64,000 bases of DNA from Akkermansia muciniphila (GCA_943333275.1 CALQSQ010000004.1:4909-68908); one strand, 5' to 3'. Shown: positions 6,727 through 61,824, numbered from the stretch's first letter. Numbers and translations are program-made. The notes: generated by a model from the letters alone, not told the origin.

Positions 6727-8529
6727 TCATTCCGTCGTCTGATAGGTGAGCCACTCTCGCCAACTTCCATAACTCGTGATTTCCCTGGCTGTCTCGCTGA
6801 TCAGGCCTTCACAAACGAAACCACACACGTGCGATCCATCCGCGAGCTGCACACGGCCCAGGACCAGCGGCGCGGCGATGCCTTCGAGGAAGGATCCCAT
6901 GGTGGATTTGGGGATTTCCCAGACTTCGAGTTCGATGGCGGCTCCGCCTTCTCTGACGCGGACCATGCCAGGCCGGTCAGGAATGCGTCCGTTTGCGGGT
7001 AGCAGGTAGAGTCGATAGCAAGGCGCACTCTGGATTCGTTGCACAAAGCGGGCCTTGCGGTCGCTCAACTGCCAGTGCAACGCGAGTCCCTCCATGTGAG
7101 CCCCGCAGACGGCAATCTTCATCATGGGGACTGTGGATGGTGGCGATTCAGGCAGTGGCACGTCACTGCTCATTGCGGAGGATTTTCCAAGCGGAAGATT
7201 GGCCTCAGCGTGAAAGCGGGCCGCGCAATCGAGCACAAGTGCATCGCCATGAGGGGGCGCATAGAAAGTCACGCCCCAGGGCAGGCCATTGCACTGAAAT
7301 CCGGCGGGAACGGCACAGCCGCAGAGATCAAGCAGGTTCATGAAATTCGTATAACGACCAAGGTTGCTGTTGAGTTTGATCGGTTCGGCCTCCACTTCTG
7401 CCCTGGTATAAATAGTCCCGGCGGTTGGCATCAGCAGAGAATTGATGTTTTGCCACGTGGCTTCACTGGCGCGCCTGAGTTCCGCGAGTCGATATTGCGC
7501 CCGGAAAGCATCCACCGCCGTCCCCTTGAGACCGCCTTCAATGATTGTGCGAGTCACTGGCAAAAGGGCTTCTGGCTGTTCTGCGAGAAGTTTACTGACA
7601 ACTGCGGTGCGTTCCGCCACCCACGGCCCTTCGTAGAGCAAACGCGCTGCATCAAGAAAGGCGCTGATGTCCACTTCGATGATTTCCCAACCCATTCCGG
7701 CGATGGTTTGTCTGGCATGATCAAACAATCGTTTGGCATCATCGTTGCCAAAGAAATCCAGTTGATCGGACCTCGGAACACCAATCTTAGGCGGCCAGGA
7801 AAACTCCGCACTCAATCCTGCACTGCGTGCATAGGCATCCGCTTCATCAAACGCAGCCGCCACTTTCAAAACACTCGACGCATCCGCCGCCGTCAGCGCA
7901 AAAATGGAGACGCAATCGAGCGTCCGGCACGCAGGCACAACCCCGGTGCAACTCAACAAACCTCGCGTCGCCTTAAGCCCGATGAGATTGTTAAACGAAG
8001 CGGGAACGCGCCCCGATCCAGCAGTGTCCGTTCCTAATGAAAAACTGCACAGGCCTTTCGCCACCGCCACCGCTGATCCCGCGCTGCTGCCACCAGGAAT
8101 GTAATCTGGATTGAAAGCGTTTCCTGGCACCCCATACGGCGAACGCACGCCGACAAGTCCTGTGGCGAACTGATCAAGGTTGGTCTTGCCCATGGGAATG
8201 GCTCCGGCATCAATCAGCAGTTTAACCACGAAAGCATGCTGGGCTGGCTCATAACTCCATGCCGGGCAGGCGGCCGTGGTGGGAAATCCAGCGCAATCAA
8301 TGTTGTCCTTGATGGCAAAAGGAATGCCGTAGAGCGGCTTGGAATCAGGCGATTCTCCTTCGAGTGCTCGAAGCGATTCTCTCAACTGCTCTTCCGTGGG
8401 CCGACTGATCCAGATCGCCGGATCATCCGACGCGGCGCGCCTCCATGCATCGAGAACAATTTCCCTGGGGCTGCAGGATCCCTCCCGATAGGCCTTGAGC
8501 AGCGCGGAAATGGAAAGATCTGGAATCAT
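6727..8529 (-). CDS. Allophanate hydrolase (amidase-signature domain plus C-terminal allophanate hydrolase domain)
   Basis: 600 aa. The amidase signature [12 protein letters not shown] with the upstream KDNID motif is present. The start overlaps the carboxylase stop by 4 nt. Confidence 0.85.
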
Positions 8530-11500
8530 AGTTGCACGGAGATGAGAGTTTGGCCCGGAGTCACTGCCTGACCTTCCTTCACATGCAGCGCCGCCACGGT
8601 GCCCGAGGTCGTGCTCGGAACGTGGATCTCCATCTTCATGGCCTCAACGATGAGCAGCGTTTGTCCTTCCTCCACACGATCACCGACGGCGACCTGCAGT
8701 TTCCAAAGACTTCCAGTCACCGGACTGACAACCGCTTCATGGCCGTCCGGCAGCGTGATCTCTGTATCCGCCGTCATCGCACTGGAAGTCGATTCCGTGA
8801 CGTCCAGCCCCGCGATCCTCCACCGTTCACGCTCAGCCGCGAAGGCATCGCGCTGAAAGGAACGAAACGCAGCGATGCTTGGTGATTCGCTTTCAAGAAA
8901 TTCGAGATAGTCACTGAGTCTGAAACTGCTCTGTTCGATGCGCGGCGTGAAACGTCCCGCAGGGAAATCGCGCCTCAGCTCCATCAACTCGTCCGCACTG
9001 ACAAGATAGAACCGCACTTGATCAAAGAACCTCAGCAGCCACGGCTTGCCATCTTCGAAGACATCCGTGACCCGATCACGATTCCACATTTGAATGGTGC
9101 GTCCCACAAATTGGTAACCGCCCGGTCCCTCCATACCATAGATGCACATGTAGGCACCTCCGATGCCCACGGCATTCTCCGGCGTCCAGGTGCGGGCGGG
9201 ATTGTATTTGGTCGTGACCAGGCGATGCCGTGGATCAAGCGGTGTCGCGACCGGCGCGCCAAGGTAAACATCACCCAACCCAAGCACCAGATAGCTCGCA
9301 TCGAAAACAATGCGCTGCACATCGGCGATACTCTCCAGCCCATTGATGCGACGGATGAACTCAATATTGCTGGGGCACCAAGGAGCATCGGGCCGAACCG
9401 ATTGCATGTATTTGTCTATGGCCAGTTGCGTCTGAGGATCGTCCCATGAGAGCGGAAGATGCAAGATGCGGGATGGCACTTTCAAATGCTCCACATCATC
9501 CAGCGAGGAGATTAACTCTTCCACCAAACGTTCAACCTGCTCTAGTCGCAGCTGCTCGCCATCGATATGAATCTGCAACGAACGAATCCCCGGCGTGAGA
9601 TCCACGATGCCGGGATGATTCATCGACTGAAGTTTTAAATAGACGGCATGCACCCAGAAGCGCAGGGCGATATCGAGCACCAGAGGCCCAAACTCCACTA
9701 GCAGGTTGCGATCCCCCGCCGGACGATACACAACTTCGGGGCGTGATGCGCAAGCCGCGATGCGATGCCGCACTGCCTGCAAAGCAGCCAGTCCACCCGT
9801 TGTTAATTCCGGAGGTGTTCCACCCGCCATGGAATCTTCTACAAACGCATCGAGCGCCTCTGCTTGCTCCAGCGAAATTGCCACGAACTGGATGCGATCT
9901 CCTGGTTTCAGTTGCCCCACTTTCCACAAGTCAGCATGGACGACAACAGCCGGGCACACAAAGCCGCCCAGGCTCGGGCCATCCGGTCCCAGGATGATTG
10001 GCATGTCGCCGGTGAAATCAATGGAGCCGATCGCATAAGCGTTGTCATGAATGTTCGAGGGATGCAATCCTGCCTCACCACCGTCCGCACGCGCCCAGGT
10101 GGGTTTTGGTCCGATCAAACGCACACCGGTGCGCGCCGAGTTGTAATGAACCTCCCATTCCGTTGCAAAAAACATTTCGATGTCTTCAGGAGTGAAAAAA
10201 TCAGGCGCACCGTGTGGACCGTAGAGGACGCGAATCGTGTCCACTTTGTTTCCGGCAGAGAAGGGATGGAGCTTGGCCAAAGAGAAAGAACCGATGGCCG
10301 CAGTTGCAGGGTTGATGTGAATAACATCGCCGACGCGCAACGCCCGCCCAGCGTGGCCGCCGAAATTCCCCAGCGTAAACGTCGAGCAGCTTCCCAGATA
10401 AAGCGGCACATCCAATCCACCCTGAACTGCCAGATAAGCGCGGCACCCATGTCCGGTGGTGCGCCCAAGCTTAAGCGTCTGTCCGGCAAGCACGGAGATC
10501 GGCTTCCAGAAGGCAACGGAAGCACCATCCAACTCCGCACTCATTTCTGCGCCAGTCAGACAAATGGTAGTGTCCGCATTAAATCGGAGCGTCGGCCCCG
10601 CCAGAGTCATTTCAAGACCTGCGACCCCTTCCTCGTTTCCGATCAGTCGATTTGCGATGCGCAGGGCCAGCGGATCCATCGCCCCAGAGGGAGGCACGCC
10701 GATTTCCCAATAGCCAAGCCGCCCCGGCGTATCCTGCACTGTCGTTTGTACTCCTGGAGCGAGCACATCGATGGTTGAAGGTCGATACTGAAATGAAGTG
10801 GCCAGGGCGCGCGTGGTGATGCGTCCTTCGGTGAAAAGTGGATCGCGAATCACCTGCCGCAGGTAGGCCAGGTTCGTCTCGATGCCACTGACGTTCGAAT
10901 GGTCCAGCGCATGCTGCATCTTGGAAATGGCGTCGGCGCGGTCTGCACCGTGCACTATAATCTTCACCAGCAGCGGATCGTAATACGGCGTGACTTCCGT
11001 TCCTGTGCTGATCCATCCATCACAGCGGGCTTCCCTGCAAAGTTGCACATCCGTGAGGCGCCCGCAGCTCGGTTGGAAGTCCTTGTTAGGATCCTCCGCA
11101 TAAACACGGACTTGGATGGCGCTTCCTTTTGGCGTAAAAGCAAAGCTTTCCAACCCAACATCCTCGCCTGCGGCGGTCCGAACCATCCATTCGACGAGGT
11201 CCAGTCCGGTAACGCATTCCGTGACGGTGTGTTCTACCTGCAGCCGGGTGTTCACCTCCAGGAAATAAAACTCGTTGGTGTCGGCATCATACACAAACTC
11301 CACGGTGCCGGCCGAACGGTAGTTTACGGATTTCCCCAACCGCACGGCGCAATCCCAAAGTGCATAGCGTGTCTCATCGGATAAGTTCGGCGCTGGTGTC
11401 TCCTCGATGATTTTCTGATTGCGACGCTGCGTCGAACAGTCGCGTTCCCCCAGGGAAACGAGCGAGCCTTTTCCATCGCCGAAAATTTGCACCTCAACGT

Positions 11501-12119
11501 GCCGTGCATTGACGACCAGCTTCTCAACAAACACCCCGCCATCCCCGAAACTTGATTTCCCCTGACGCACCACGGATTCAAACGCGGCCCGCAGTGATGC
11601 AACGTCATCACACCGCCGCATTCCGATTCCGCCGCCGCCCGCCGTGCTCTTGAGCATGACGGGAAAACCAATGCGCGACGCCTCACTCACCGCCTCGTCC
11701 GCATCGCGCAGCAGGGCCGAGCCTGGAACCAATGGAACCTTGCAGGCCAGGGCTCGTTCACGCGCGGTGTGCTTCAATCCAAAGGCGCGCATTTGATCAG
11801 GCGTTGGCCCCATGAAAGCCATGCCGGCCTGTTCGCAGGCTTCGGCGAAACCCGCATTTTCACTGAGCAATCCATATCCGGGATGAACCGCCTGCGCACC
11901 GCATTGAGATGCAATTTCCAACAATCGCTTCTGGTTGATGTAGCTCTCGGCCACCGGCGCGGGGCCCAGCAGATAGGACTCATCGGCCATGGAGACATGG
12001 GGCGCGTCGCGATCCGCTTCGGAATATACAGCAACGGAGCCAACGCCCATTTTTTTGAGAGTTCGGATGATGCGGCAGGCGATTTCGCCGCGATTGGCCA
12101 CGAGGACTTTGGTAAACAT
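8526..12119 (-). CDS. Urea carboxylase / guanidine carboxylase (biotin carboxylase + carboxyltransferase AHS1/AHS2-like domains + biotinyl domain)
   Basis: 1197 aa. The N-terminus [20 protein letters not shown] is a biotin carboxylase start, and the C-terminal biotinylation motif EAMKME is present. The length and order are typical of bacterial urea-carboxylase-type enzymes. Confidence 0.9.
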
Positions 12120-12122
12120 AGG

Positions 12123-12755
12123 TCAGTCCCAGATGAGCACGCGCACCGGGGTTGGGTTGTAGGCATTGCAGGGATTGTTTAACTGCGGGCAGTTGGAAAT
12201 GAGGCACATCACATCCATTTCGGCGCGCATTTCGACATACCGTCCCGGGCCGCTGACGCCATCGGCAAAGCTGAGCTGGCCATCCAGTGTCACGGGCACA
12301 TTCATGAAAAAATTGATATTGCAGGTGATGTCGCGCTTGCCCATGCCGTGGCTCCAGCATTGCACGCCGCGGATAAAACTGTCGCGGCAGGCATGCATCG
12401 GCTCTTTTTCGACTGCGTAACGCATAACGTTGCTTTCGCGTGAGCAAGCGCCGCCAAGCGTGTCGTGCCGGCCGCAGGTGTCGGCCACGATAGTGAGCAG
12501 CGGATTACCCCGTGTGGACATGAGCTTCGTTCCCGTCGTCAAATAAAGCGCAGCCTGATGACGGATGGTATCGCTCGCGCTGTAGCGTTCGAGCGGATCA
12601 TGGGCGTTATAAAACAGAGTGTCGGCGGCCTGGTTTCCCTCCAGATCCTCGATGCGCAGGGTCTGCCCTTTTTTAACAAGATGCAGCCAGTGATCGCCCG
12701 CAGGCACGATCTCGTCGTGAACTGCTTCAGAAGGATTGAGGTGGGATGCGATCAT
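12123..12755 (-). CDS. DUF1989 protein (urea-carboxylase-associated protein 2 / carboxyguanidine deiminase subunit-like)
   Basis: It is a paralogue of the upstream gene and sits immediately 5' of the carboxylase (3-nt gap). I moved the start to the internal Met (MIASHLNP), which gives an ATGA overlap with the upstream stop. Confidence 0.75.
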
Positions 12756-13468
12756 CGGGCGAGGAGGTAAAATTCTTCGGTGCTGCAATGCGCCCTGGCG
12801 TTCTCGGGCCGCACGATGAAGCTTGGGTCATCGACAGCGGGAGGATCACTCCTGAGGACCTCGAGCCGCACCCGACGCGGGTGATACTGTGGATCGGGAT
12901 CCAGCGGATGCTGGCAGGTGTTCAGCACCACAAGCGTGTCCATTTCGAATCGCAGATCGACTGAGTCCCCCGGCTTTGAGTTTCCACTGACAAAATCCAG
13001 CCGCCCTTCCTCGTCCGCCACAATCTTGCTGAACCAATTAAGGTTCGGAACCAGATCACGCTCGCCCAGTCCCCATTTCGAAAGCTCGATGAGGAAGCAG
13101 TCCCGGGCATTGCGATGAAAATCATTGCGGGCGGTTTGAAAATTTTTCTCCCCATATTTTTTAAGGACCAGGGAGGCATCGCTAGCCCCACACACGGAGT
13201 CGTGCCAGCCAACGTCATCCCGGGTGATCGAGGCGAACAATCTCCCCATGTCCGAATGAAGGCAATAGGGGGCGCGCAGGTAGAAAATGTGCTGGCCCTT
13301 GAGCGTATCGGGCATGTTGTAGCGTTCATGACGCTCGGTGGCGTTATAGAGCAGCATGCCGACATTGGCGCCGCCCTCGAGATCGGTAAGTCGCAGGGTC
13401 TTATGCCTGCCAATGACGCGCGACCACATGCCTGCGCCGCTGAGTTCGATGTTATAAAAGGGAGTCAT
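12752..13468 (-). CDS. DUF1989 protein (urea-carboxylase-associated protein 1 / carboxyguanidine deiminase subunit-like)
   Basis: 238 aa. Its pattern is related to the downstream paralogue ([20 protein letters not shown] versus [20 protein letters not shown]). It overlaps the regulator stop by 4 nt. Confidence 0.75.
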
Positions 13469-13929
13469 GGTTCATCCGCCTGGGTTTGAATGGGTGGCAT
13501 GAGGGTGCGCGTCAGGTTAAGCCGTCCAGCGAGCACCCCCTTGCAGGTGAGGAGTTTGTTGGCAATTTGGCGCAACCGCTTTGCCGGACCCTGAACAAGA
13601 ATCACTTCCATGGTGTTACTGTTTTCCAGCAGGACATGCAGGGAACTGATCACCTCCCGAATGCTCTCATGCTGGATGTCGGCAATTTCCTGCTTCAACC
13701 CGGGCCGCTTGTGATCGTAGAAAAGCGTGATTGTGCCGGCCATCATGCGGTTGCCTCGAAGGCTGTAATAGTCGGCAATGTGCTGGGTGAGGACTTCCGC
13801 CACCGCCTGCGATCGATTGTGGAATCCTCGCTCGATCATCAACTCCTGAAACTGACGAAACACGCCCTCGGGCAACGAGAGCGTAACCCGGTGGGCAGTG
13901 GTGGAGTCAGCGGAAGGAAGGTCGGCCAT
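13465..13929 (-). CDS. NikR-like ribbon-helix-helix (CopG family) transcriptional regulator with a C-terminal ACT-like domain
   Basis: It aligns by eye along the whole of E. coli NikR ([10 protein letters not shown].., [14 protein letters not shown] versus RGYNNRSEAIRDIL; [30 protein letters not shown] versus [30 protein letters not shown]). The ATG at 13929 is preferred over the GTG at 13953. Confidence 0.7.
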
Positions 13930-13967
13930 TTTGTGATAAGGAATCTTGAGCACGATTCAGACCATTC

Positions 13968-13996
13968 GTATGAAGAAAAATCAAATTGGTATGAAG
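13968..13996. promoter_or_regulatory. Direct repeat GTATGAAG-N13-GTATGAAG (21-bp period) in the AT-rich gap upstream of the RHH regulator; candidate operator
   Basis: Exact 8-mers lie at 13968-13975 and 13989-13996. GTATGA is the half-site of the E. coli NikR operator (GTATGA-N16-TCATAC). This is the only sizeable intergenic gap inside the 15-gene cluster. Confidence 0.35.
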
Positions 13997-14006
13997 TATT
14001 TAGGGT

Positions 14007-14822
14007 TTAAATCACATTCTGCAATCGTCCCATCATCCAACGGTTCACCTCGCGAAGGTCAGCCACCCGCTTCCGTGTAAATAGCTCCTCCTGCAGGTAT
14101 CCATCCGGGCCGAACTCCGGGGTGAACGTGGGCAGAGGATTCCCATGCAAAACTTGTCTTTCCGCAATTCGCCGCCACCAGCGTTCATGGGCTACGAGGG
14201 CGGCGGCATATTCCGGCACACGGGGATCGGGAACCTGCGGTCCCTGCTCGTAGCCCACGCGTGCATGCACATGAAGGGCACGATTCGCGATTAAATCCAA
14301 CAATTCCCCCTCCTCATCCATCACCAGCCTTTCGGTCACCGCGCACCAGTGGCTGAAATCACAGGTTAATCTCAGCTCAGGAATTCCCTTCAACAAATCG
14401 CGCGTCACCCAGGGATGGAACGTAGGCCGGCTCCGGTGCGTCTCGAACGCAATCGGGATGCCAAATTCCCTCTCGAGTGCGAGCGCTTGCGCATAAAAAC
14501 TAAGGGCTTCGGCCATCGGCCAGGCGTCGCTCCCGGCAAGGGCATTGATCAAAATCGGTTTGAACGGAAGGGACTTTTCAATTTGATCACGCAAATCCTC
14601 AAAATGAACCTTAGTGGAGAGGTGCGCGCGGGGCACGTATCCGCCCCCGGTCGCGATTTCTGCAATCCATGGCACGGATCGCTGACGCAAACTTTCCACG
14701 TTGGCATCATCCACCGGCACCGGTCCCTCGATTCCACAGGCCTCCCATTCGGCAGCAAGCGCCAATGCGCCGGTGATATTCACCTCGTTTCCCCAGCAGG
14801 ACACAAAACATCGCGGTTTCAT
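14007..14822 (-). CDS. Xylose-isomerase-like TIM-barrel protein (sugar phosphate isomerase/epimerase family)
   Basis: 271 aa with family-typical strand ends (AFETH, HVHARVG, CDFSHW). It overlaps the upstream gene by 4 nt. Confidence 0.6.
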   Translation of the reverse strand: MKPRCFVSCWGNEVNITGALALAAEWEACGIEGPVPVDDANVESLRQRSVPWIAEIATGGGYVPRAHLSTKVHFEDLRDQIEKSLPFKPILINALAGSDAWPMAEALSFYAQALALEREFGIPIAFETHRSRPTFHPWVTRDLLKGIPELRLTCDFSHWCAVTERLVMDEEGELLDLIANRALHVHARVGYEQGPQVPDPRVPEYAAALVAHERWWRRIAERQVLHGNPLPTFTPEFGPDGYLQEELFTRKRVADLREVNRWMMGRLQNVI

Positions 14823-15679
14823 GGCAAATCGAAGTTCACCTCCCTTCTGGCCTCCGGATGGCCCCTAACGTATTCGGCAATCTCCTGCCCACGTGCGAAC
14901 CAAACGTAACCTCGTTCCCTCGCCTTTGTCAGCAACTCCTCCAGCAACCGCACCCGTGAGGGGCGCCCGCTCAGCCAGGGATGCAGCGTAAGCACGAAAC
15001 AGCAGCCAAAATCACGCATGGCCTCGAATTCGCGCCACCAGAGATCGAACACGTTGCTGCAATTCTGCGGAATGGAACCCCAGGCTGGCTCGGCATTGAA
15101 GGCGAACTGCTCCCAGTCCTCCAGCATCCATTGGCCGGGAATTTCGATGAGACCATTTGAGTGCGTGTAGGGCACGTCATCGCCCATCATGCTGGCATTA
15201 TAAAGATAGCTGAACTCCTTCAACAATCCGGGTGTTCCAGGATTGATCTCAAACCATGGAGCGCGAAACCCAACGGGGCGCCTGCCCGTGATACGCTCAA
15301 GGATGCCGGTACTTTTTTCCAAAACCGCGCGTTCCTCCTGTGGAGATAAATGGGCCAGCTTTTCGTGCATGTGCCCATGTGCGCCGACCTCATGCCCGCG
15401 GGTGACGATGGCTTCCATCATCCGTGGATGACGTTCGGCGATGTAACTCGGCACGAAAAACGTGGCCGGGAGTTGCAAATGATCGAGCAAGCCCAGTAAT
15501 CGCGGCACGCCAACGTTTGGTCCATATTCGCACTGCGACATCGTGGTGAGGCGGGAAGCGAGCGTTGGGTCCTCGGAGAGCGCGGTGGTTTCGCCATCGA
15601 CATCAAAGCACAGCATGAAGGCACACTTGGCACCGTCGGGCCAGATAAAGCGTGGAGGAGGGGAGTAGAGTTCAGTCAT
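14819..15679 (-). CDS. Polysaccharide deacetylase (CE4/NodB) family hydrolase, PuuE-allantoinase-like size
   Basis: NodB-type motifs are present: FDVDGET, PATFFVPSYIAERHP, GHEVGAHGHMHE. I moved the start to the internal Met (MTELYSPPP), which gives an 8-nt overlap with the SDR stop. The longer ORF (to 15820) would overlap the SDR by about 150 nt. Confidence 0.7.
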   Translation of the reverse strand: MTELYSPPPRFIWPDGAKCAFMLCFDVDGETTALSEDPTLASRLTTMSQCEYGPNVGVPRLLGLLDHLQLPATFFVPSYIAERHPRMMEAIVTRGHEVGAHGHMHEKLAHLSPQEERAVLEKSTGILERITGRRPVGFRAPWFEINPGTPGLLKEFSYLYNASMMGDDVPYTHSNGLIEIPGQWMLEDWEQFAFNAEPAWGSIPQNCSNVFDLWWREFEAMRDFGCCFVLTLHPWLSGRPSRVRLLEELLTKARERGYVWFARGQEIAEYVRGHPEARREVNFDLP

Positions 15680-16442
15680 GCCAGTGCCCTCCGACAATGT
15701 TGTTCGGTGAAGTGAGCGGATACTCGTTCCAGCCGGCGGTGATTCCTCCGTCCACTGGGATGTTGGCTCCGGTGATGTAGCTCGCGTCATCGCTGGCAAG
15801 GAAGTGAAACGCCGCAGCAATCTCGTCGGGCCACGCGAGGCGGCCCAACGGTGTCGCCTTGCTCACGAATGAAATCTCTGGGTTGTTGGGAATATCGGTG
15901 ACAGCAGGCGTGAGCACGGTGCCGGGGCAGACGCAATTCACGGTGATGCCTTTCGCGGCCAGTTCGATGGCACCGAGTTTGGTGAGGTGAATGACGGCCG
16001 CTTTGGAAGTGGAGTAAGCGGTGCCACTGGGCGAGCCGATCATGCCTACAAAGGAGCCCGTGTTGATGATGCGACCGCCGCTTTCGAGCAGTTGCCCGCC
16101 GTGCTTGATACCGAAGGCGACGCTGTGAACATTCACTTCAAAGGTGCGCTGCAGAAGCTGCGGTGTGAGTTCATTGAAGCTGACACCGAGCGGTTGGATG
16201 CCCGCGTTGTTGATGAGGATGTCCACGCGACCAAACTCTGACTTCGCTTGCTCCAACATGCCGCGCACTTCGTCCTCGGCGGAAACATCGGCTTGATGGA
16301 ACACAGCGCCTTCGATCTTGGCAATGTTGCGATCCACCAGCAACACGCACGCTCCAGCCTTGACGAAGCGCTCGACAACGGCGAGGCCGATGCCAGAGGC
16401 TCCTCCAGTTACGACGGCGACTTTGTTGGTCAGGTCAAACAT
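15672..16442 (-). CDS. Short-chain dehydrogenase/reductase (SDR) family oxidoreductase
   Basis: Cofactor motif TGGASGIGLA, NNAG, and catalytic YSTSK (YxxxK). Confidence 0.85.
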   Translation of the reverse strand: MFDLTNKVAVVTGGASGIGLAVVERFVKAGACVLLVDRNIAKIEGAVFHQADVSAEDEVRGMLEQAKSEFGRVDILINNAGIQPLGVSFNELTPQLLQRTFEVNVHSVAFGIKHGGQLLESGGRIINTGSFVGMIGSPSGTAYSTSKAAVIHLTKLGAIELAAKGITVNCVCPGTVLTPAVTDIPNNPEISFVSKATPLGRLAWPDEIAAAFHFLASDDASYITGANIPVDGGITAGWNEYPLTSPNNIVGGHWHD

Positions 16443-16837
16443 GGTGGTGGTCCGTTGTGCGTGAATTTTGGAAGCTCCGGATCAAGCACGAGCCAGGGAA
16501 GATGATCGGCCATCCAGTTGTAGTCGTCAGGCTGCAGTGATGCCGCGTCATCCATGGTGCCTAGAGTCAGCTCCAAGAGATCAGGATAGGCGCTGTCGTA
16601 GAAGCTAATGGGTGAGCCGCAGGCAGCACAAAACGCGCGTTCGCGCCCTTCGTAGTGATGCACGCGCAGTTCGCCGGTGATGATGCGGATGTCCTCTTTG
16701 GCAAAGAAGACCCAGCCCTGGAACGGCGCGCCACTGGCACGGCGACAGTCTTCGCAGTGGCAGAGGGACGTGTTTAGTGGTGCGCCGTGCGCTTCGTAGC
16801 GCACAGCTCCACAGAGGCAGTGGCCAGTCCACATCAT
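16430..16837 (-). CDS. GFA / CENP-V family zinc protein (glutathione-dependent formaldehyde-activating enzyme family)
   Basis: MMWTGHCLCGAVRYEA...CHCEDCRRASGAPF...FCAACGSPI shows the GFA cysteine pattern. The start at the internal ATG forms an ATGA overlap with the Rieske gene stop. Confidence 0.7.
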   Translation of the reverse strand: MMWTGHCLCGAVRYEAHGAPLNTSLCHCEDCRRASGAPFQGWVFFAKEDIRIITGELRVHHYEGRERAFCAACGSPISFYDSAYPDLLELTLGTMDDAASLQPDDYNWMADHLPWLVLDPELPKFTHNGPPPCLT

Positions 16838-18096
16838 GGCCTTTGAGAGGGCGCGGGTGGAATGTCGGTCGCGGGCATAACGCCGCGGATCCGGGCCGCA
16901 AGGTATCGTTGGATCAGCCAAACGGACATCTCCAAGTAACTCAAGCGGCCACGCTGATAACCGCTGGCATAGAACCCGCGCTGCACGGCGGTGCACATTT
17001 CCATGTCTTCCATGTGAAACTTGCGCAGAATCTCAATCTGCTCGGCACACATCGCTGGCCAGTTCAGGTGCTCGGTGGTGGATGCAGGCACGAGCGTGGT
17101 GGTCAGAAGCTTCACGCGATCCGCAGCGGCGGGGATCATGCGGTAGAAGATGAGGCGATCCGGGTTCGCCGAGATCAGCATGAGCGGATGCACGAGGAAG
17201 ATGTGCCACTCGTTTCTCAACTCCGCTGGCAGATCAATGGGCGGCATCCCATGCACGGACTCACCGCGGGCTTCCGCAGCCAGCATGTCATCGAGCATCG
17301 CGGGCTTCACGGGCAGATGCGCTCGGATGTAGGCGGGGCGTTCTTGTTCGTTCCAAGTGAGCTTGGCTGGCATCATCGGCTGCAGCGTCGTCGAGTGCGC
17401 GCCGATGTGGTGATACGACTCCATGAAGTTCTCCGCGAGCACCTTCCAGTTGAAAGGACAGTCCCACTCCATTTGGATGACCATCTTCATCTCACTGATG
17501 TTCCAGGGCGCGAGTGCCTCGGCCAAACCACTGAGTCGCTCATGCAGCGGCGGTGCGGCACCATCGAGATTGACGAAGACAAAGCCATTCCACACCTCGC
17601 AAGCGAAGGACGTCAGGCCCCACTCCGCACGATCAAAGCATTCCGTCTTCTCCATCTCCGGCGCCCCTTTGAGCCGACCGTCCAAATCAAACGTCCACGC
17701 GTGATACGGGCACATGAAAACGCGCGAATGGCCACAGTCCGGCGGCCCGTGGCCGGCATAGCCAAAACCCTCGGGCATGATGTCCATCGCCCGATGCGGA
17801 CACACTCGCGAGAGCACGCGGATGTTCTCTTTGCCTCGCACCACGATGAGCGGATCGCCGAAGACGTCGATGTTCAAGTAGTCGCCGACGTTCGGGATCT
17901 GCGACACATGCGCGAGGGGCAGCCAGTCGTTGCGGAAAACGTGATCGACTTCCCAATCAAAGAACGCCTCGCTCGTGTAGGCTTGTGCTGGCAAGGTCGT
18001 GGCCTGCGCGAGCGGGAGTTGCGCGATGCGTTGGATCTCGGCTTGGATCTGTTCGACGCTCCACTGCGGAAGCGCGTTTCTGGATGACGTGCTCAT
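16834..18096 (-). CDS. Rieske [2Fe-2S] non-haem-iron oxygenase, alpha subunit only (GbcA/Stc2/NdmA-like monooxygenase class)
   Basis: Rieske motif CPHRAMD...CPYHAWTF. Mononuclear-iron motif NFMESYHHIGAHS. There is no beta subunit or reductase gene nearby. Confidence 0.85.
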   Translation of the reverse strand: MSTSSRNALPQWSVEQIQAEIQRIAQLPLAQATTLPAQAYTSEAFFDWEVDHVFRNDWLPLAHVSQIPNVGDYLNIDVFGDPLIVVRGKENIRVLSRVCPHRAMDIMPEGFGYAGHGPPDCGHSRVFMCPYHAWTFDLDGRLKGAPEMEKTECFDRAEWGLTSFACEVWNGFVFVNLDGAAPPLHERLSGLAEALAPWNISEMKMVIQMEWDCPFNWKVLAENFMESYHHIGAHSTTLQPMMPAKLTWNEQERPAYIRAHLPVKPAMLDDMLAAEARGESVHGMPPIDLPAELRNEWHIFLVHPLMLISANPDRLIFYRMIPAAADRVKLLTTTLVPASTTEHLNWPAMCAEQIEILRKFHMEDMEMCTAVQRGFYASGYQRGRLSYLEMSVWLIQRYLAARIRGVMPATDIPPAPSQRP

Positions 18097-18099
18097 GGT

Positions 18100-19461
18100 T
18101 CAAAACAACCGTGCATACTGATCGATCTCCCACTGGCTGACGCGCTGGTGGTATTGGAGCCACTCCTCGCTCTTGTAGGCAACGAACTCGTTGCGGAGTT
18201 CGGTGCCGAGCGTGGCCTCCACAAATGGATCCTCAGCAAATGCGCGGACGGCTTCGTCCAGGGTGCGGGGGAGTTCGCTGATGCCGCGCGCCTTGAATTC
18301 CTCCGCGCTGAGGGCGTAAAGATTATCCTCGTTGGAATTCCCGGGATCCAATTTTTCACGGATGCCCTCAAGCCCCGCGGCCAGCACCAGGGTAGCGGCG
18401 AGGTAGGGATTGCAGGCGGCATCGGCATTGCGGGACTCCATGCGTCCACCCGCCATCGGCACGCGCACGGAGTTTGTGCGGTTGTTGCGTCCGTAACTGT
18501 TGAACACCGGCGCCCACGTATAGTTTGCCATGAGTCCCCGGCGCACCAGCCGCTTGTAACTGTTCACCGTGGGAGCGAAGGCAGCGCACAAGGCGCGGCC
18601 GTGTTTCAGGACTCCTCCCATGAAATGATAGGCCATCTCACTGATACCCAATCCGCGCGGATCGTCTGCATGCGCACGGGCAAACCTGTTTTTCCCCGTC
18701 TCCAGATCATACAGCGACATGTTGAAATGCGCGCCACTGCCAGTCTTGTCGGCGAAGGGCTTGGGCATAAACGTCGCCAGCAATCCCTCCTCTGCGGCGT
18801 AGTGCTTGGCCATGTAGCGGAAGAAAATGTAGCGGTCGCACATGGTGAGGGCGTCGGCGTATTTGAAATCGAACTCGAACTGGGATGATGCGTCCTCATG
18901 GTCGAAGGAATACAGATCCCATCCAAGGTCATTGATGCAGCTGGCGACCTTGTCGACCCATGTGAACCGATCCAGGAAGCGCTTTACGTCATAGCATGAC
19001 TTCACAAGCGTCTCATCGGGATTGGGGAACTCAAGCTTCCCGTCGGTGGTCAGTTTCAGGACAAACAGCTCGCATTCGATTCCAAGGTTCATGCCGAGGC
19101 CCATGTCGGCAGCCTGCTTCAATACCTTTTTCAGGGCGCAGCGGGTGTTCACTTCGTAGGGCTCACCCTTGAATGTATTGTCTGCCGGCATCCAGGCGAT
19201 TTCCTTTTGCCAGGGAAGTTGGATGATGTTGTCAACGTCAGGAAGCGAGGCGATCTCATCATCGTTGGGACTCTGGCCCAGGCCGTCCAGCGCATATCCG
19301 GTGTAAAGTTCGGAGCCTCTGGCGAAATCCAGGAAATGATCAATCGGCACAAATTTACCCTTTGGCACACCATGGATGTCAACATAGGCGCCAATGCAAT
19401 ATTTCACGCCCTTGGCCTTGAGGGAGTCGCGGATGGAGGTCAGTTCGGAATCGGTCTTCAT
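18100..19461 (-). CDS. Glutamine synthetase family protein (GlnT / gamma-glutamyl-amine ligase-like)
   Basis: 453 aa. The GS catalytic-domain pattern is present ([19 protein letters not shown]...R.E.R). Confidence 0.8.
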
Positions 19462-19484
19462 TGATTATCTGTGGGGATGGTGGT

Positions 19485-20273
19485 TTAATACAAGACGTTG
19501 GAGTCGGACCAGTGATGCGGATCGAGGGGCGGGATTTCGCAACGGGCGCGGTTGATGATCTCGGCCAGCGCCTCGCCCATTTTGACAAACATTTTCGCGC
19601 CGCGATCAGCCGAGCCCAGCGATGGCTTGCCGGTGATTCCGTTCAGGCTTGTTTGGGAGACGGGGTAACTGAATACGAGACCTTCCGTCCGGTCGGGATC
19701 ATCCTCCACCCAATCCATGCGCACGGTGTCCGGCGCCAAGTGCAGCATGAGATCAGTCTCCGCACAATTTGCATGCAGGTCTGCGGCGTCATTGATGAAA
19801 TAATTCCAAATCTCAGTAGTGAGCTGGTAGGTGTGTCTGAGGCCGATTTGAATTCCCCCCAGAAATTCCGTCCGAATGCGATCCACTGCCACCCGAAGGG
19901 ATGCGTCGTTTCCGAAATGGGCGTTGACGATGAGCAGTCGCCTCCACCCTGTGCGCATGCTCCACAGGGCGATCTCCCGGATCATGGCGATGAGGGTTTC
20001 GTGATTGATCGAAAATGTCCCCGGCCACTTGGAAGTGTGCCCGACGGAAACCCCGTAGGAAAGTGGGGGCAGCATGGGCACCATGGTTCTCGCGGAGGCG
20101 TAGGAGCAGACAGCGGAGGCGATGGCGGTATCCGTGTTGATTGGTAGGTGGGGGCCGTGCTGCTCGGTCGCACCGATGGGGAGGATCAGCATGTCCTGAC
20201 CTCCAGCCTGGAGTTCCGCGATGGCTCTCCAGGAAAGGTTCTCCAGCAAAACGGGGGATTCATTCGACATCAT
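19485..20273 (-). CDS. Creatininase-family amidohydrolase (creatinine amidohydrolase / formamide hydrolase family)
   Basis: Motif LPIGATEQHGPHLPINTD plus the downstream VNAHFGN. I moved the start to an internal Met (MMSNESP), which overlaps the ATPase stop by 11-14 nt. Confidence 0.75.
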   Translation of the reverse strand: MMSNESPVLLENLSWRAIAELQAGGQDMLILPIGATEQHGPHLPINTDTAIASAVCSYASARTMVPMLPPLSYGVSVGHTSKWPGTFSINHETLIAMIREIALWSMRTGWRRLLIVNAHFGNDASLRVAVDRIRTEFLGGIQIGLRHTYQLTTEIWNYFINDAADLHANCAETDLMLHLAPDTVRMDWVEDDPDRTEGLVFSYPVSQTSLNGITGKPSLGSADRGAKMFVKMGEALAEIINRARCEIPPLDPHHWSDSNVLY

Positions 20274-21150
20274 CGCCTGCCTTGGTGAGTTTGACGACGG
20301 GCAACTTGTCCTCTTCAACATCGATGGGTGGATGGATGAGTTCCTCAAGGCGGAGCTTGAGTGCGAGATATTCAGGAGAAACAAACTGTGCGGTGGAGCG
20401 CGGGCGGGGAATGGGATTCTCAATCACCTCCACGATCCGTCCCGGATTGGTTCCCATAACCATGATGCGATCCGAAAGATACGCGGCCTCCTCAAGGTCA
20501 TGCGTGATGAAGAGAACCGTGATGTCCACTTTCTTCCAAATTTGTAGCAGGTAGCTTTGCATCTGGGCGCGGGTCTGGGCATCGAGTGCGCCAAAGGGTT
20601 CGTCCATGATGAGGATGCGCGGCTCATTGGCGAGAGCCCGCGCAATGGCGACGCGTTGCTTCATTCCGCCCGACAATTCATGGGGATAGGACTCCTCAAA
20701 TTTCGAAAGTCCCACCATGTCGAGCCATTGCCGGGCTTCCGATTCGGCGGTGAATTTGTCCTTGCCGCGCATTTCAATGCCAAACATGACGTTGCGTTTC
20801 ACCGTCAGCCAGGGAAACAGCGTATAGCCCTGGAAGACCATTCCGCGATCCGGGCCGGGTTCACCAATCTCCCTCCCATCAAGCAGCGCCACGCCTCCGC
20901 TGCATTCGTCCAGACCGGCGATGATGCGGATGAAGGTGGATTTACCGCATCCGGAGGGACCGATGACGGTGATGAATTCGCGGCGGCGGATGTCGATCGA
21001 AACGCCGTCGAAAACAGTGCGCGTGCTGCCGTTGACGCCATAGGTCTTCTTCAGGCCGCGCACGCTCAGAATCACGGGACGCTGCCGGATGCGTTCAAAC
21101 CGGGCTGCGACCTCCGGGGAAAGATTGCGATAATCGAGGGCCGCACTCAT
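20260..21150 (-). CDS. ABC transporter ATP-binding protein (NitT/TauT nitrate/sulfonate/bicarbonate family)
   Basis: Walker A GPSGCGKST, signature LSGGMKQR, Walker B ILIMDEPF. Confidence 0.9.
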   Translation of the reverse strand: MSAALDYRNLSPEVAARFERIRQRPVILSVRGLKKTYGVNGSTRTVFDGVSIDIRRREFITVIGPSGCGKSTFIRIIAGLDECSGGVALLDGREIGEPGPDRGMVFQGYTLFPWLTVKRNVMFGIEMRGKDKFTAESEARQWLDMVGLSKFEESYPHELSGGMKQRVAIARALANEPRILIMDEPFGALDAQTRAQMQSYLLQIWKKVDITVLFITHDLEEAAYLSDRIMVMGTNPGRIVEVIENPIPRPRSTAQFVSPEYLALKLRLEELIHPPIDVEEDKLPVVKLTKAGDDVE

Positions 21151-22181
21151 GCTTCGACGGCCTTAGCAGGCTTGGGTCTTGAGTTGAAAATGCGGCCAAG
21201 CAATGACCCCTTACCTGACGCGGCAGCGGAGCGCCGTTTCCACGGGAAGATCACCCTCCCAATCCAAGCCAGCAGCAGGTCTGTGGTGAAACCGATGATG
21301 CCGATCATGAAGATGGCGGCATAGACGTTGTCGAAATTCCGGTAACGCGCCTGCTGATTGATGAAATACGTGATCCCCGACATCGTGCCGACGACTTCGG
21401 CAACGATCAGATAGGTCCACGCCCAACCCAGCAGAATGCGCATGTCGGTATAGATGTCGCTTACCGAAGCCGGGATTACCACACGCCTCAGCAGTTTCCA
21501 CCCCCGTGCCCCCAGGGTCTGGGCAGCCTCAATGAGCCCGGGATCGACCTTGCGCACGGTATTGCTGATGACCAGAACCTGCTGGAAGAAAGTGCCGATG
21601 AAAATGATCGCAATCTTCGGGCCATCATCGATTCCCAAAATGGCCACACACAGGGCTCCGAAGGCCGGGGCGGGCAGGTAGCGGAAAAACTCAATGAATG
21701 GTTCCTGCAGGCGGGAGAAGAAGCGGTAGGTGCCGCAGAGAATGCCCAATGGCACACCGAAAATTGAGGAAATGACAAACCCCCAGAAGATGGTTCGGAG
21801 GCTGTGCGCCAGACTCTCGTGCAGCCACGGCTCATTGGGCAGGCGCGGCTCGGTGGTAAAGGCTGTGTAAAACGCCCGGGCCACCCTGTGTGGCGGTGGA
21901 AGGTAAAGGGGATTGATCCGATATCCTTCCGGCAGCGTGCCGCCCGCTGCCTGCACCTTTTCCAGTTCGGCATCGAAGTCCGCCCGCGGCACATCCATGT
22001 CCTCGACAAAATAGTCCACATCTCCAGGTGCAGTGACATGGACGAGTGGATGCCAGAGCCACGGCACGTAACTGATGGCGCACCAAAGCGCGAGCGGCAG
22101 GAGAAACGAACACAGCGCCAGCACAAATCTTCGCCGTGGGGGCAGGTCGTGCTTCAACCCCAGCCAGTCGCGCTTCGGCAT
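21147..22181 (-). CDS. ABC transporter permease (NitT/TauT family)
   Basis: Polytopic membrane protein carrying the EAA-loop-like IEAAQTLGARGWKLLRRVVIPAS. It overlaps the ATPase gene by 4 nt. Confidence 0.85.
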   Translation of the reverse strand: MPKRDWLGLKHDLPPRRRFVLALCSFLLPLALWCAISYVPWLWHPLVHVTAPGDVDYFVEDMDVPRADFDAELEKVQAAGGTLPEGYRINPLYLPPPHRVARAFYTAFTTEPRLPNEPWLHESLAHSLRTIFWGFVISSIFGVPLGILCGTYRFFSRLQEPFIEFFRYLPAPAFGALCVAILGIDDGPKIAIIFIGTFFQQVLVISNTVRKVDPGLIEAAQTLGARGWKLLRRVVIPASVSDIYTDMRILLGWAWTYLIVAEVVGTMSGITYFINQQARYRNFDNVYAAIFMIGIIGFTTDLLLAWIGRVIFPWKRRSAAASGKGSLLGRIFNSRPKPAKAVEA

Positions 22182-22200
22182 ATGGGTGGTGGGTGAAAAC

Positions 22201-23172
22201 TTATTTCAGGGCCTCAACCACACTTGGGGTCAGGTAACTTTCGGGTTTCTGGGAGTCCTTGTAAACCTTGTTGTCCAGATTGAATTTGTTTCCAACCGCC
22301 ATGGAACCATAAATGGAGTCCAGACCCTCGCCTTTCTTGTAGGCTGCCTTGGCTTCCTTCAGCGTGAGGAAATGAGTTCCGGGGACATTGCTGGCGTAGT
22401 CTGCAACTTCCGCCCCAACCTTGGCCGCCATGATCTTTACCGCGTCGTCCTTGGTTTTTTCATCCAGTAGGTAATCCACACACTTGTAAAAGACAGCTGT
22501 GAACTTGGACCATGACTCCTTGTTTTTGGCATAGCTGGTGGGATTGACCGCCAGCACATCGTAGATCAGGCCCTTGGCCTCCGCGCTGGAGAAAAGTTTT
22601 TTGGAACCGGCAACCTGCTTCAGGGCCTGGCCCGAGGATGGATACCAGGCGCCGATGGCGGCGACTTTTCCAGAAGCGAGCGTCTGGGGGGTTTCGTTCG
22701 TCGGGGTGTTGACGAGTTCGACATCGGATTGCTTCATGCCATTGACCTCCAGGGCCTTGAGCAGCAGCAGGTGTTCCACGAGGGTGAGTTCCAGACCGAC
22801 CTTCTGGCCCTTGAGGTCCTTGATGGACTCGATTCCCGGTTTGCCAACGATCGCGTCACTTCCATCGCTGTAATCCAAAAGGGCGATGATCTTGCTCTTG
22901 GCTCCGTTGGCGCCATTCACCAGCGCATCCGTGGCCACGCAGGTCACCGCATCAATCTTTCCAGCGGAAAATGCATCCAGTGAGGGCAGGTAGTCGAACC
23001 AAACCAGTTCAACTTCGATTCCTGCCTCCTTGAACCATCCTTTCTGCTTCGCCACCTCAAGGACGGTATAGCCAGGCCAGTCTGAATAACCGACTTTCAG
23101 CGGGGCGGCATTAGCATTGAAGAGCAGGCCGGTCAGGAGGAGCACTAGGCAGGGAAGGAGTTTGGCTTTCAT
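22201..23172 (-). CDS. ABC transporter periplasmic substrate-binding protein (NMT1/TauA-like)
   Basis: Signal peptide MKAKLLPCLVLLLTGLLFNANA followed by a type-2 SBP pattern (LKVGYSDWPGY...). It is the first gene of the cluster. Confidence 0.8.
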   Translation of the reverse strand: MKAKLLPCLVLLLTGLLFNANAAPLKVGYSDWPGYTVLEVAKQKGWFKEAGIEVELVWFDYLPSLDAFSAGKIDAVTCVATDALVNGANGAKSKIIALLDYSDGSDAIVGKPGIESIKDLKGQKVGLELTLVEHLLLLKALEVNGMKQSDVELVNTPTNETPQTLASGKVAAIGAWYPSSGQALKQVAGSKKLFSSAEAKGLIYDVLAVNPTSYAKNKESWSKFTAVFYKCVDYLLDEKTKDDAVKIMAAKVGAEVADYASNVPGTHFLTLKEAKAAYKKGEGLDSIYGSMAVGNKFNLDNKVYKDSQKPESYLTPSVVEALK

Positions 23173-23225: not shown

Positions 23226-23241
23226 AGCATCCCTTGTGCCA
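23226..23241 (-). promoter_or_regulatory. Candidate sigma-54 (-24/-12) promoter for the 15-gene cluster
   Basis: The minus strand reads TGGCACAAGGGATGCT against the consensus TGGCAC-N5-TTGCW. GG/GC spacing is correct and there is one mismatch. It lies about 54 nt upstream of the SBP start codon. Confidence 0.4.
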
Positions 23242-41491: not shown

Positions 41492-41704
41492 ATGGCAACG
41501 CACCCGCCGCCTAATAAGGGAAAGCCCTATGCCGTGCCTCCGCGATTCCTGATCGCGACGGTGGTCATTTGTCTGACCCTGGCGGGGATGCTGGTGCCAC
41601 GCAAGGCCGAATTGGTGCAACGGCTGATGGAGGATGGAAACCACCACCGAGCCCGAGCCGTGGCCCTCAGCGACGACCCCCTCCTATTCGGGAGGTGGAA
41701 GTGA
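41492..41704 (+). CDS. Small single-pass membrane protein, first gene of the pel-like operon (PelB N-terminal-anchor-like)
   Basis: MATHPPPNKGKPYAVPPRFLIATVVICLTLAGMLVPRKAELVQRLMEDGNHHRA... is a TM helix followed by a helical start. The stop TGA (41702-41704) overlaps the GTG at 41701 of the next gene. Confidence 0.5.
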   Translation: MATHPPPNKGKPYAVPPRFLIATVVICLTLAGMLVPRKAELVQRLMEDGNHHRARAVALSDDPLLFGRWK

Positions 41705-43629: not shown

Positions 43630-43677
43630 TCATCATTTTCCCAAAGACCGACCGTCACCCCAAATCGTCACCACCCC

Positions 43678-61812: not shown

Positions 61813-61824
61813 CCACCTCTCACC

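Follow-up and report, generated by a model that had tools for sequence, protein, structure and literature searches.

What is a Rieske oxygenase doing in an operon that also encodes a urea/guanidine carboxylase? The question is raised by a stretch of Akkermansia muciniphila DNA (GCA_943333275.1, CALQSQ010000004.1:4909-68908) of 64,000 nucleotides, the whole of which is called the window below. On its minus strand, a string of 15 co-directional, mostly overlapping genes (6727-23172) contains in its middle the genes for a Rieske oxygenase, a GFA-family protein and a short-chain dehydrogenase/reductase (SDR). The order of the string is ABC importer, creatininase-like protein, GmaS-type ligase, Rieske oxygenase, GFA protein, SDR, PuuE-like hydrolase, TIM-barrel protein, NikR-like regulator, UAAP1 and UAAP2, urea/guanidine carboxylase and allophanate hydrolase. 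Going by sequence and gene context, we regard it as reasonably probable that the oxygenase acts on N-methylated guanidino compounds, methylguanidine being the likeliest of them, in a nitrogen-scavenging pathway. There it would most likely be a non-homologous analogue of the methylguanidine-hydroxylating enzyme MgdH, giving guanidine and formaldehyde.

The oxygenase gene and its metal sites are as follows.

16834-18096, minus strand: alpha-only Rieske oxygenase, 420 aa (Pfam PF00355, 3e-17; PF00848 Ring_hydroxyl_A, 1.2e-27)
17701-17802, minus strand: Rieske [2Fe-2S] motif, C99-P-H101 ... C129-P-Y-H132, read from the sequence and from alignments
17395-17421, minus strand: mononuclear-iron motif, E226-S-Y-H229-H230-I-G-A-H234, read from the sequence
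17005-17007, minus strand: codon of D364, within FHMEDME, the presumed third iron ligand

The two motifs from which the original prediction started, CPH...CPYH and ESYHHIGAH, are both present. In an alignment of 61 homologues, the Rieske motif, E226, H229/H230, H234 and D364 are invariant, and D364 is likely to be the third iron ligand. The operon closes with four genes of urea or guanidine metabolism.

12752-13468, minus strand: UAAP1, DUF1989 (TIGR03425, 303 bits, above cutoff)
12123-12788, minus strand: UAAP2, DUF1989 (TIGR03424, 337 bits, above cutoff)
8526-12119, minus strand: biotin-dependent urea/guanidine carboxylase, 1197 aa (TIGR02712, 1842 bits, above cutoff)
6727-8529, minus strand: allophanate hydrolase, 600 aa, last gene of the operon (PF01425, PF21986; TIGR02713, 751 bits, above cutoff)

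By their family matches, UAAP1 and UAAP2 form a pair of the carboxyguanidine-deiminase (CgdAB) type, and together with the carboxylase and the allophanate hydrolase they would convert guanidine to ammonia and CO2. Guanidine has been recognised only recently as a real nitrogen source for bacteria. A way into this pathway from methylguanidine has been described in Vreelandella boliviensis: the 2-oxoglutarate (2OG) dioxygenase MgdH hydroxylates methylguanidine to an unexpectedly stable hemiaminal, and MgdL, formerly a hypothetical protein, splits this N-(hydroxymethyl)guanidine, for which it is specific, to guanidine and formaldehyde; mgdH and mgdL both lie inside the guanidine carboxylase operon (Sinn et al. 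2025, PMC12508155).

The decisive link between the window oxygenase and this chemistry comes from its orthologues. We collected 80 genome loci with a Rieske orthologue (46-77% identity), one per species, and counted neighbouring genes within 10 kb; many contigs being short, the counts are minimum values. Individual loci, here and in the further sets, are given L numbers. The MgdL sequence from Supplementary Data 1 of PMC12508155, searched against all loci, gave a single strong match, the product of the gene that comes next after the Rieske orthologue in Acidocella aromatica (L077; tblastn 1.4e-13; BLASTP 31% identity, 8e-18). This protein keeps Asp49 and Arg51 in the form VDLRIP, and its locus also has the carboxylase, the allophanate hydrolase and an ABC transporter; the published MgdL alignment contains Acidocella and Zavarzinia sequences (PMC12508155). 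Further MgdL-like loci were found with the Acidocella protein as query, followed by inspection of their context. In L090, a LysR gene is followed by a Rieske gene (product 46% identical to the window protein, 8e-124) that overlaps an MgdL-like gene by 4 nt, and then by genes for an SDR and a creatininase-like protein. The same pattern, with the Rieske gene coupled to the MgdL-like one, recurs in L093 and L094, and in L150 a Rieske orthologue lies a few genes from an MgdL homologue. The MgdL-coupled Rieske orthologues are 46-49% identical to the window protein, and an SDR gene also follows the MgdL-like genes of L090, L093-L096 and L150.

The partners vary on both sides. Parvibaculum sedimenti (L091) combines an MgdL-like protein with a 2OG oxygenase, an ABC transporter, two DUF1989 proteins and the carboxylase, and L092 has the carboxylase, the allophanate hydrolase and an MgdL-like protein. 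A further 80 metagenomic MgdL-like loci were inspected; in the 42 whose flanks are long enough, the MgdL-like gene neighbours an MgdH-type 2OG oxygenase in 24 cases, a member of the present Rieske family in two and a fatty-acid-desaturase-like gene in two. The counterpart of this exchange is seen for a further protein of the operon.

14007-14822, minus strand: xylose-isomerase-like TIM-barrel protein, 271 aa (AF2 model and fold search)

This protein has no Pfam match and no meaningful PDB sequence match; its AF2 model (pLDDT 93.3) retrieves TIM barrels in a fold search, with TM of about 0.6 and identities of 11-15%. Genes for its homologues (50-55% identical) overlap a 2OG oxygenase gene by 4 nt in L087, L088 and L173 (Polyangia-type), and the 2OG oxygenase of L087 and L088 is 53-55% identical to that of Parvibaculum L091, encoded beside the MgdL-like gene. 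In L174, the TIM-barrel gene comes immediately after the Rieske gene, and carboxylase genes follow. Thus, all four combinations of Rieske or 2OG oxygenase with MgdL or TIM barrel occur. Directly observed are the gene contents, the families to which the proteins belong, the intactness of the metal motifs and the gene pairings that recur across genomes. Their simplest reading is that the Rieske protein does the job of MgdH and that the TIM barrel acts on the product of the oxygenase, as MgdL does. The first part would follow from the coupling of Rieske orthologues to MgdL homologues and from that of the TIM barrel, elsewhere, to a 2OG oxygenase; by the second, the TIM barrel, which regularly accompanies the oxygenase, is a candidate for the hemiaminal lyase or for the enzyme of the following step. 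The operon context and the MgdL coupling thereby lend considerable support to the proposal, made in the original prediction, of hydroxylation beside a guanidino nitrogen with release of guanidine and formaldehyde. That MgdL might itself be the TIM barrel was considered and rejected: MgdL is an unrelated beta-barrel protein of about 250 aa with no match in the window.

The same loci bear on the accessory genes. A trio of creatininase-like, GmaS-like and NikR-like genes, all three of which are also in the window operon, stands complete beside MgdL/2OG-oxygenase pairs in L116, L118, L119 and L158, and only the ligase and the regulator accompany MgdL in L120, L140 and L141. The ligase of the L116-type trio, from soil and peat metagenomes, is 64-71% identical to the window ligase. 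Because the trio also stands beside MgdL/2OG pairs, these genes would belong to the pathway whichever oxygenase it uses. Their presence there also points to an unrecognised ligase/amidohydrolase function in guanidine metabolism. A separate observation is that a gene of the fatty-acid-desaturase family (membrane di-iron) recurs with MgdL-like genes in L089, L095, L117 and L129, and also in L090, L093 and L094. The first four of these loci have no 2OG or Rieske oxygenase of the present families, and the desaturase-family protein may be a third type of hydroxylase partner.

In the pathway that we favour, the NitT/TauT-type ABC system would import the N-methylated guanidino substrate. The Rieske oxygenase, with electrons from a ferredoxin and reductase encoded elsewhere, would hydroxylate the carbon on the guanidino nitrogen to the hemiaminal N-(hydroxymethyl)guanidine. 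The hemiaminal would next yield guanidine and formaldehyde, a step that the MgdL lyase would perform in the proteobacterial relatives; candidates for it here are the TIM barrel and, in relatives, a PvdO-like protein, perhaps together with the GFA protein. Alternatively, the SDR might oxidise the hemiaminal and the PuuE-like hydrolase deformylate the product, a course that would run via N-formylguanidine to formate. The GFA protein may trap formaldehyde or instead join in hemiaminal cleavage. Trapping would be in keeping with the finding that V. boliviensis induces glutathione-dependent formaldehyde detoxification when it grows on methylguanidine (PMC12508155).

How constant this gene set is can be judged from the 80 Rieske loci, in which the following neighbours were found.

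68 of 80 loci: PvdO-like protein (FGE-sulfatase domain)
66 of 80 loci: TIM barrel
49 of 80 loci: creatininase-like protein, usually beside the ligase
47 of 80 loci: glutamine-synthetase (GS)-like ligase, either paralogue
45 of 80 loci: PuuE-like hydrolase
43 of 80 loci: SDR
at least 34 of 80 loci: carboxylase-pathway genes
15 of 80 loci: GFA protein, in three positions in three lineages

Directly downstream of the Rieske gene lies an SDR gene in 36 loci, a PvdO-like gene in 23 and a GFA gene in five. The two genes that follow the oxygenase in the window are these.

16430-16837, minus strand: GFA/CENP-V-family zinc-cysteine protein, 135 aa (PF04828, 1.3e-26, 93 bits against a cutoff of 24.3)
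15672-16442, minus strand: SDR, 256 aa (PF13561, PF00106)

Read directly, the stop codon TGA of the Rieske gene (16836-16834) overlaps the ATG of the GFA gene (16837-16835) as ATGA, and the GFA gene runs 13 nt into the SDR gene (GFA stop codon at 16432-16430, SDR ATG at 16442). Both overlaps had been described in the original prediction, which took the coupling of oxygenase and GFA protein for a signature of oxidative N-demethylation or C-N cleavage. The counts do not bear this out: GFA genes are far less constant neighbours than those for the TIM barrel or the PvdO-like protein. Nor is the ATGA junction distinctive. Four more 4-nt overlaps are found in the operon (8526-8529, 13465-13468, 14819-14822 and 21147-21150), and because overlapping or abutting codons are the rule there, the junction is no special mark of the Rieske-GFA pair. 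The trio of oxygenase, GFA protein and SDR does lie in a guanidine/urea carboxylase operon, but it is not what is conserved across the loci; the original prediction left out the TIM barrel, the PvdO-like protein, the GmaS-type ligase and the creatininase-like protein.

The cysteine pattern of the GFA protein is CxC...CHCEDC...CxxC, with C7, C9, C26, C28, C31, C70 and C73 invariant in 15 orthologues. In a sequence search of the PDB (E<=0.01), its sole match was 8AJQ (7e-18), an uncharacterised CENP-V/GFA protein for which our literature search found no describing paper. Structures of the Paracoccus Gfa have been solved and were hence probably among the PDB chains searched, and the catalytic role of that protein has itself been questioned. 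As 8AJQ alone was matched, the family name does not establish formaldehyde activation. The GFA protein is possibly an accessory member of the module that captures formaldehyde or processes the hemiaminal. The original prediction gave it and the SDR a putative part in detoxifying the released formaldehyde or aldehyde.

A PvdO-like gene was not found in the window by tblastn. The closest relatives carry it between the SDR and PuuE-like hydrolase genes, and compared with the 73-79%-identical relatives L006 and L008, about 650 nt holding it have been cleanly lost at the SDR/hydrolase junction (15672-15690). The possibility that the GFA protein has replaced the PvdO-like one was rejected, as the close relatives L005, L006 and L008-L010 carry both.

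The downstream branch varies as well. Five loci (L030, L033, L037, L039 and L043) have no carboxylase and instead encode two His-rich proteins, one of the arginase family and one a putative nickel transporter; L033 and L043 also have a urease. Two arginase-family genes come after the Rieske gene of Zavarzinia (L079), and BiuH-like isochorismatase genes occur in four loci. The arginase-family, urease and BiuH-like genes are again ones of guanidine, urea or biuret-type nitrogen metabolism, and the carboxylase and arginase-family/urease branches appear to alternate behind one upstream module. The arrangement in the five carboxylase-free loci resembles the nickel-dependent guanidine hydrolase route set behind the same Rieske module. 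A small multidrug resistance gene (PF00893) stands beside the Rieske cluster of L085 (3587-3916, minus strand), from a metagenome-assembled genome labelled Pseudoalteromonas; this family includes guanidinium exporters.

Might the oxygenase instead be an ordinary Group-V oxygenase of quaternary ammonium compounds (glycine betaine, carnitine, choline or stachydrine) that lies beside urea/guanidine genes by coincidence? CntA, GbcA and Stc2 are indeed its nearest relatives in sequence and fold, and CntA and Stc2 are alpha-only enzymes that catalyse N-dealkylation or C-N cleavage. The kinship to enzymes of this kind that had been anticipated from the motifs is thus borne out. CntA is the best PDB sequence match (1.7e-37), with the similarity limited to residues 32-236, and the AF2 model of the window protein (pLDDT 86.7) has CntA as its nearest fold (TM 0.82-0.85) and Stc2 as the second. 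The CntA identity, however, is only 24-25%, and the GbcA equivalog model NF058607, whose cutoff is 670 bits, gives 125 bits and matches the N-terminal half only (residues 30-242). Moreover, at the iron site, where CntA has E205-C206-x-x-C209, the window protein has E226-S227-Y-H-H230, so that S227 and H230 stand in the positions of the Cys-x-x-Cys pair of CntA and Stc2. No dedicated reductase gene of the CntB or GbcB type adjoins the Rieske gene in the window or recurs in the related loci, and the linkage to guanidine genes persists over rearranged loci in several phyla. A Group-V enzyme in chance company is, we believe, very improbable.

Still closer to implausible is the function under which the family is annotated, that of the alpha subunit of an aromatic-ring-hydroxylating dioxygenase. 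The source annotations are generic ("phenylpropionate dioxygenase-like", "aromatic ring-hydroxylating dioxygenase subunit alpha"), and there are weaker matches to BphA and HcaE. Ring dioxygenases rank below CntA in the fold search (TM 0.63-0.75), however, and beta-subunit, aromatic-catabolic or dedicated electron-transfer genes were not seen in the loci examined. In particular, neither the operon nor the larger open reading frames (ORFs) of the 64-kb window gave a Pfam match to a beta subunit, a ferredoxin or a reductase, and none is among the recurrent extra gene families of the 80 related loci. The lack of a beta subunit and a reductase in the cluster was thus correctly noted, and the suggestion that the reductase is supplied in trans agrees with its absence among the recurrent genes of these loci.

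A database search with the window protein returned 3563 proteins at E<=1e-20; the best 120 clusters (90% identity) are all at least 55% identical to it and are carried mainly by soil and freshwater Verrucomicrobiota, with some Proteobacteria. The two halves of the Rieske motif are 27 residues apart in the window protein and 34 in most relatives, against a usual spacing of about 16-17, and family alignments place an invariant Cys121 (as Cys121-Gly-His) in the insert. A similarly long spacer is probably present in the methanesulfonate monooxygenase MsmA. Given the long insert, the absence of the Cys-x-x-Cys pair and the low similarity to CntA and GbcA, the window protein belongs to a family of its own, either inside the group of alpha-only N-dealkylating Rieske oxygenases or next to it. 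Two Rieske paralogues, 52-55% identical to the window protein, share a cluster in L038, L041 and L063; there, one is followed by the PvdO-like and TIM-barrel genes and the other by an SDR or hydrolase gene.

Several points weigh against methylguanidine demethylation by this family. All of its biochemistry, that is, the substrate, each reaction step and the roles of the TIM-barrel, GFA, SDR, hydrolase and GmaS-type proteins around the oxygenase, is predicted from sequence. The MgdL homologues encoded beside Rieske genes share only about 31% identity with the characterised MgdL and may use another hemiaminal, and the 2OG oxygenases of L087, L088, L091 and L173 are called MgdH-type from their context only. 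In the window itself, tblastn detects no MgdL homologue, and no guanidine riboswitch or other Rfam family comes up to its gathering threshold in any part of the 64 kb. Some loci, e.g., L041 and L052, have the Rieske, TIM-barrel and PvdO-like genes and no carboxylase or arginase-family gene within 10 kb. The window oxygenase is also an atypical, shortened member of its family: compared with relatives 73-79% identical to it, it is about 25 residues shorter at the N-terminus and 7 residues shorter in the family-specific Rieske-motif loop. The junction between the ligase and Rieske genes (18096-18102) has lost about 340 nt relative to L006 and L008, which has removed those N-terminal codons. Finally, two sets of genes do not fit a simple demethylation. 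It could do without the creatininase-like, SDR and PuuE-like genes, and the GmaS-type ligase implies an alkylamine, e.g., methylamine, which demethylation to formaldehyde would not yield. The ligase and the creatininase-like enzyme are unexplained and hint at a longer pathway, perhaps from creatinine.

The two upstream and downstream hydrolases among these genes are the following.

19485-20297, minus strand: creatininase-family amidohydrolase, about 270 aa (PF02633, 1e-60; start uncertain, as the ORF reaches 20423)
14819-15682, minus strand: hydrolase of the PuuE-allantoinase/polysaccharide-deacetylase family, about 287 aa (PF01522; start inferred at MTELYS...)

Their frequency (creatininase-family 49, SDR 43 and PuuE-like 45 of the 80 loci) is what would be expected if the Rieske protein acted not on methylguanidine but on a larger guanidino compound such as creatinine, creatine or guanidinoacetate. 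With creatinine, hydroxylation at C5 would give creatol, which would be oxidised by the SDR, opened by the creatininase-like enzyme and deacylated by the PuuE-like hydrolase to methylguanidine. Mammals break creatinine down oxidatively by a comparable chemistry, from creatinine through creatol and creatone to methylguanidine. With creatine or guanidinoacetate, the methyl or carboxymethyl group would be removed oxidatively, and MgdL or the TIM barrel would act on the corresponding hemiaminal. The SDR and creatininase-like genes that follow the Rieske-MgdL pairs in the Proteobacteria (L090, L093, L094 and L150) also favour a larger compound, and the paired Rieske paralogues of L038, L041 and L063 would fit two oxidative steps. 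The natural origin of methylguanidine is largely open, creatinine being its only reported source, and an abiotic one (Sinn et al. 2025, PMC12508155). On the other side of the balance, the creatininase-like protein scores only 122 bits against the curated NCBIfam creatininase cutoff of 235, and is also under the MftE cutoff; it matches PDB creatininase at 4e-22. The PuuE-like protein matches 3RXZ at 7e-74 and PuuE at 2e-23, and PDB searches with these two proteins and the substrate-binding protein gave assignments at the family level only, with no clue to a ligand. Minimal modules in L052, L056 and L057 consist of a permease, a substrate-binding protein and the Rieske, PvdO-like and TIM-barrel proteins, with no creatininase-like protein, SDR or hydrolase, and N-(hydroxymethyl)guanidine is the specific substrate of the characterised MgdL (PMC12508155). 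We therefore consider a larger substrate unlikely, if worth keeping in view. A related and similarly doubtful proposition is that the operon is a complete, undescribed route from creatinine-type compounds through methylguanidine and guanidine to ammonia. In such a route, the creatininase-like, SDR and PuuE-like enzymes may make methylguanidine; the TIM-barrel, PvdO-like and/or GFA proteins may be new, non-homologous enzymes that process N-(hydroxymethyl)guanidine; and the GmaS-type ligase and the nickel-site-less NikR-like regulator may be part of a hitherto overlooked branch of guanidine metabolism.

The ligase suggests yet another substrate.

18100-19461, minus strand: GmaS-type glutamate-alkylamine ligase, 453 aa (TIGR03105, 617 bits)

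It could make gamma-glutamylmethylamide from methylamine, and the Rieske protein could then demethylate this amide to glutamine and formaldehyde, in the manner of aniline dioxygenase and gamma-glutamylanilide. GS-like and Rieske proteins are known to cooperate on arylamines, and the ligase gene stops 3 nt ahead of the Rieske start. Hallmarks of GmaS are the replacement of the flap Glu by Trp and the lack of an Asp at the Asp50' position (Wang et al., PMC7948447); the window ligase has Trp at the former position and Thr at the latter, where glutamine synthetase has its ammonium-binding Asp, and it retains the catalytic Asp, Glu and Arg of GmaS. Its best PDB matches are the glutamate-methylamine ligases 9QUR (4.6e-109) and 7CQL (3.5e-96), ahead of true glutamine synthetases (about 1e-71; about 244 bits versus 368 for 9QUR). 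However, L077, L090, L093 and L094 have Rieske-MgdL pairs with no GS-like gene nearby, and many Rieske-TIM loci have no ligase within 10 kb. The ligase also accompanies 2OG-oxygenase/MgdL pairs, which suggests that it follows the pathway and not the Rieske protein. Since Rieske-MgdL pairs occur without the ligase, we have downgraded gamma-glutamylmethylamide to a very unlikely substrate. A second GS-like paralogue (44% identical, just under the TIGR03105 cutoff) is found in L001, L011, L014, L015, L020, L031 and L085, usually followed by a 186-aa protein of the AhpD/carboxymuconolactone-decarboxylase type; the pair accompanies or replaces the main ligase.

Returning to methylguanidine as the favoured substrate, the remaining parts of the operon are its importer, its regulator and a possible promoter.

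20260-23172, minus strand: NitT/TauT-type ABC importer (Pfam NMT1, BPD_transp_1, ABC_tran), made up of the next three
22201-23172, minus strand: substrate-binding protein
21147-22181, minus strand: permease
20260-21150, minus strand: ATPase
13465-13953, minus strand: NikR-family regulator, 162 aa (PF08753, NF003381)
23226-23241, minus strand: sigma-54-type -24/-12 element TGGCACAAGGGATGCT, TGGCAC-N5-ATGCT (pattern match)

The substrate-binding protein is nearest to TIGR03427, the carboxylase-associated "putative urea" substrate-binding family, with 134 bits, below the cutoff. The regulator is without canonical nickel ligands, having Leu for H89 and Thr for C95 in an alignment with what we take to be the E. 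coli NikR sequence. Cys95 is missing in all 36 of its orthologues and His89 in 23 of the 36. The NikR-like protein is found with guanidine-pathway genes in several phyla and may sense something other than nickel. The sigma-54-like element, 54 nt upstream of the first gene, is the sole match in the window, where 0.19 are expected by chance, and at least one match to the pattern arose in 19 of 100 shuffles. It would fit nitrogen-regulated expression of the operon and is suggestive only.

Outside the operon, the window holds ordinary PVC-type chromosome, with guaB (ORF translation) and with rpoD, dnaG, nadC, Pel and PSCyt/DUF1501 genes (Pfam). TPR-repeat genes (41569-45972) are closely followed by exopolysaccharide genes of the PelF and PelG types, and there is also a PSCyt/DUF1553 and DUF1501 gene pair, typical of Planctomycetes-Verrucomicrobia. 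Both are unrelated to the operon.

48484-51528, plus strand: Pel genes
59146-63195, plus strand: PSCyt/DUF1553-DUF1501 pair

Our literature search found no paper linking Rieske oxygenases to methylguanidine, the guanidine carboxylase operon, creatinine or gamma-glutamylmethylamide. The reaction type and the pathway are known; what would be new is a different enzyme superfamily with different helper proteins. The demethylation of methylguanidine has so far been demonstrated only for an unrelated enzyme, MgdH, and this large uncharacterised Rieske family has the appearance of a second, non-homologous solution, one accompanied by at least one putative new family of helper enzymes, that of the TIM barrel. 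From the swap pattern come testable assignments for several proteins that are annotated only as "hypothetical" or "sugar phosphate isomerase". If true, the proposed role would correct a widespread misannotation as aromatic ring-hydroxylating dioxygenases, and it points to a use of methylated guanidines, which may stem from creatinine, as nitrogen sources by many Verrucomicrobiota.

Against this background, the window operon may be compared with the systems that it most resembles. Its oxygenase shares with CntA the alpha-only organisation, a bridging Glu three residues ahead of the first iron-binding His and, by prediction, chemistry at a carbon beside a charged nitrogen. It differs in the missing Cys-x-x-Cys pair, the lack of an adjoining reductase and the low identity already mentioned, and the insert of 27-34 residues between the halves of its Rieske motif sets its family apart from CntA, GbcA and Stc2 alike. 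The ligase is like GmaS in its flap Trp, in the non-Asp residue at Asp50' and in the catalytic segment DHEDxxxQFE, but it is paired with a creatininase-family gene and a NikR-like regulator and has no linked N-methylglutamate synthase or dehydrogenase genes. The GFA protein has its seven cysteines arranged as is typical for the two zinc sites of this family, along with a clear PF04828 match, and the family name suits a pathway expected to release formaldehyde. The closest parallel is with MgdH and MgdL. In both systems, a guanidine carboxylase/CgdAB/allophanate hydrolase operon comes with a NitT/TauT-type ABC transporter, and both seem to follow the logic of an oxygenase and then a helper; orthologues of the window oxygenase are even coupled to MgdL homologues that have the catalytic Asp and Arg. 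However, MgdH is a 2-oxoglutarate dioxygenase, whereas the window hydroxylase is a Rieske/mononuclear-iron protein that would draw on NAD(P)H-derived electrons, so the relation between the two is one of functional analogy only. In place of MgdL, the window has TIM-barrel and GFA proteins; a guanidine riboswitch is absent, and the GmaS-type ligase, creatininase-like, SDR and PuuE-like genes are without counterparts in the published V. boliviensis operon.

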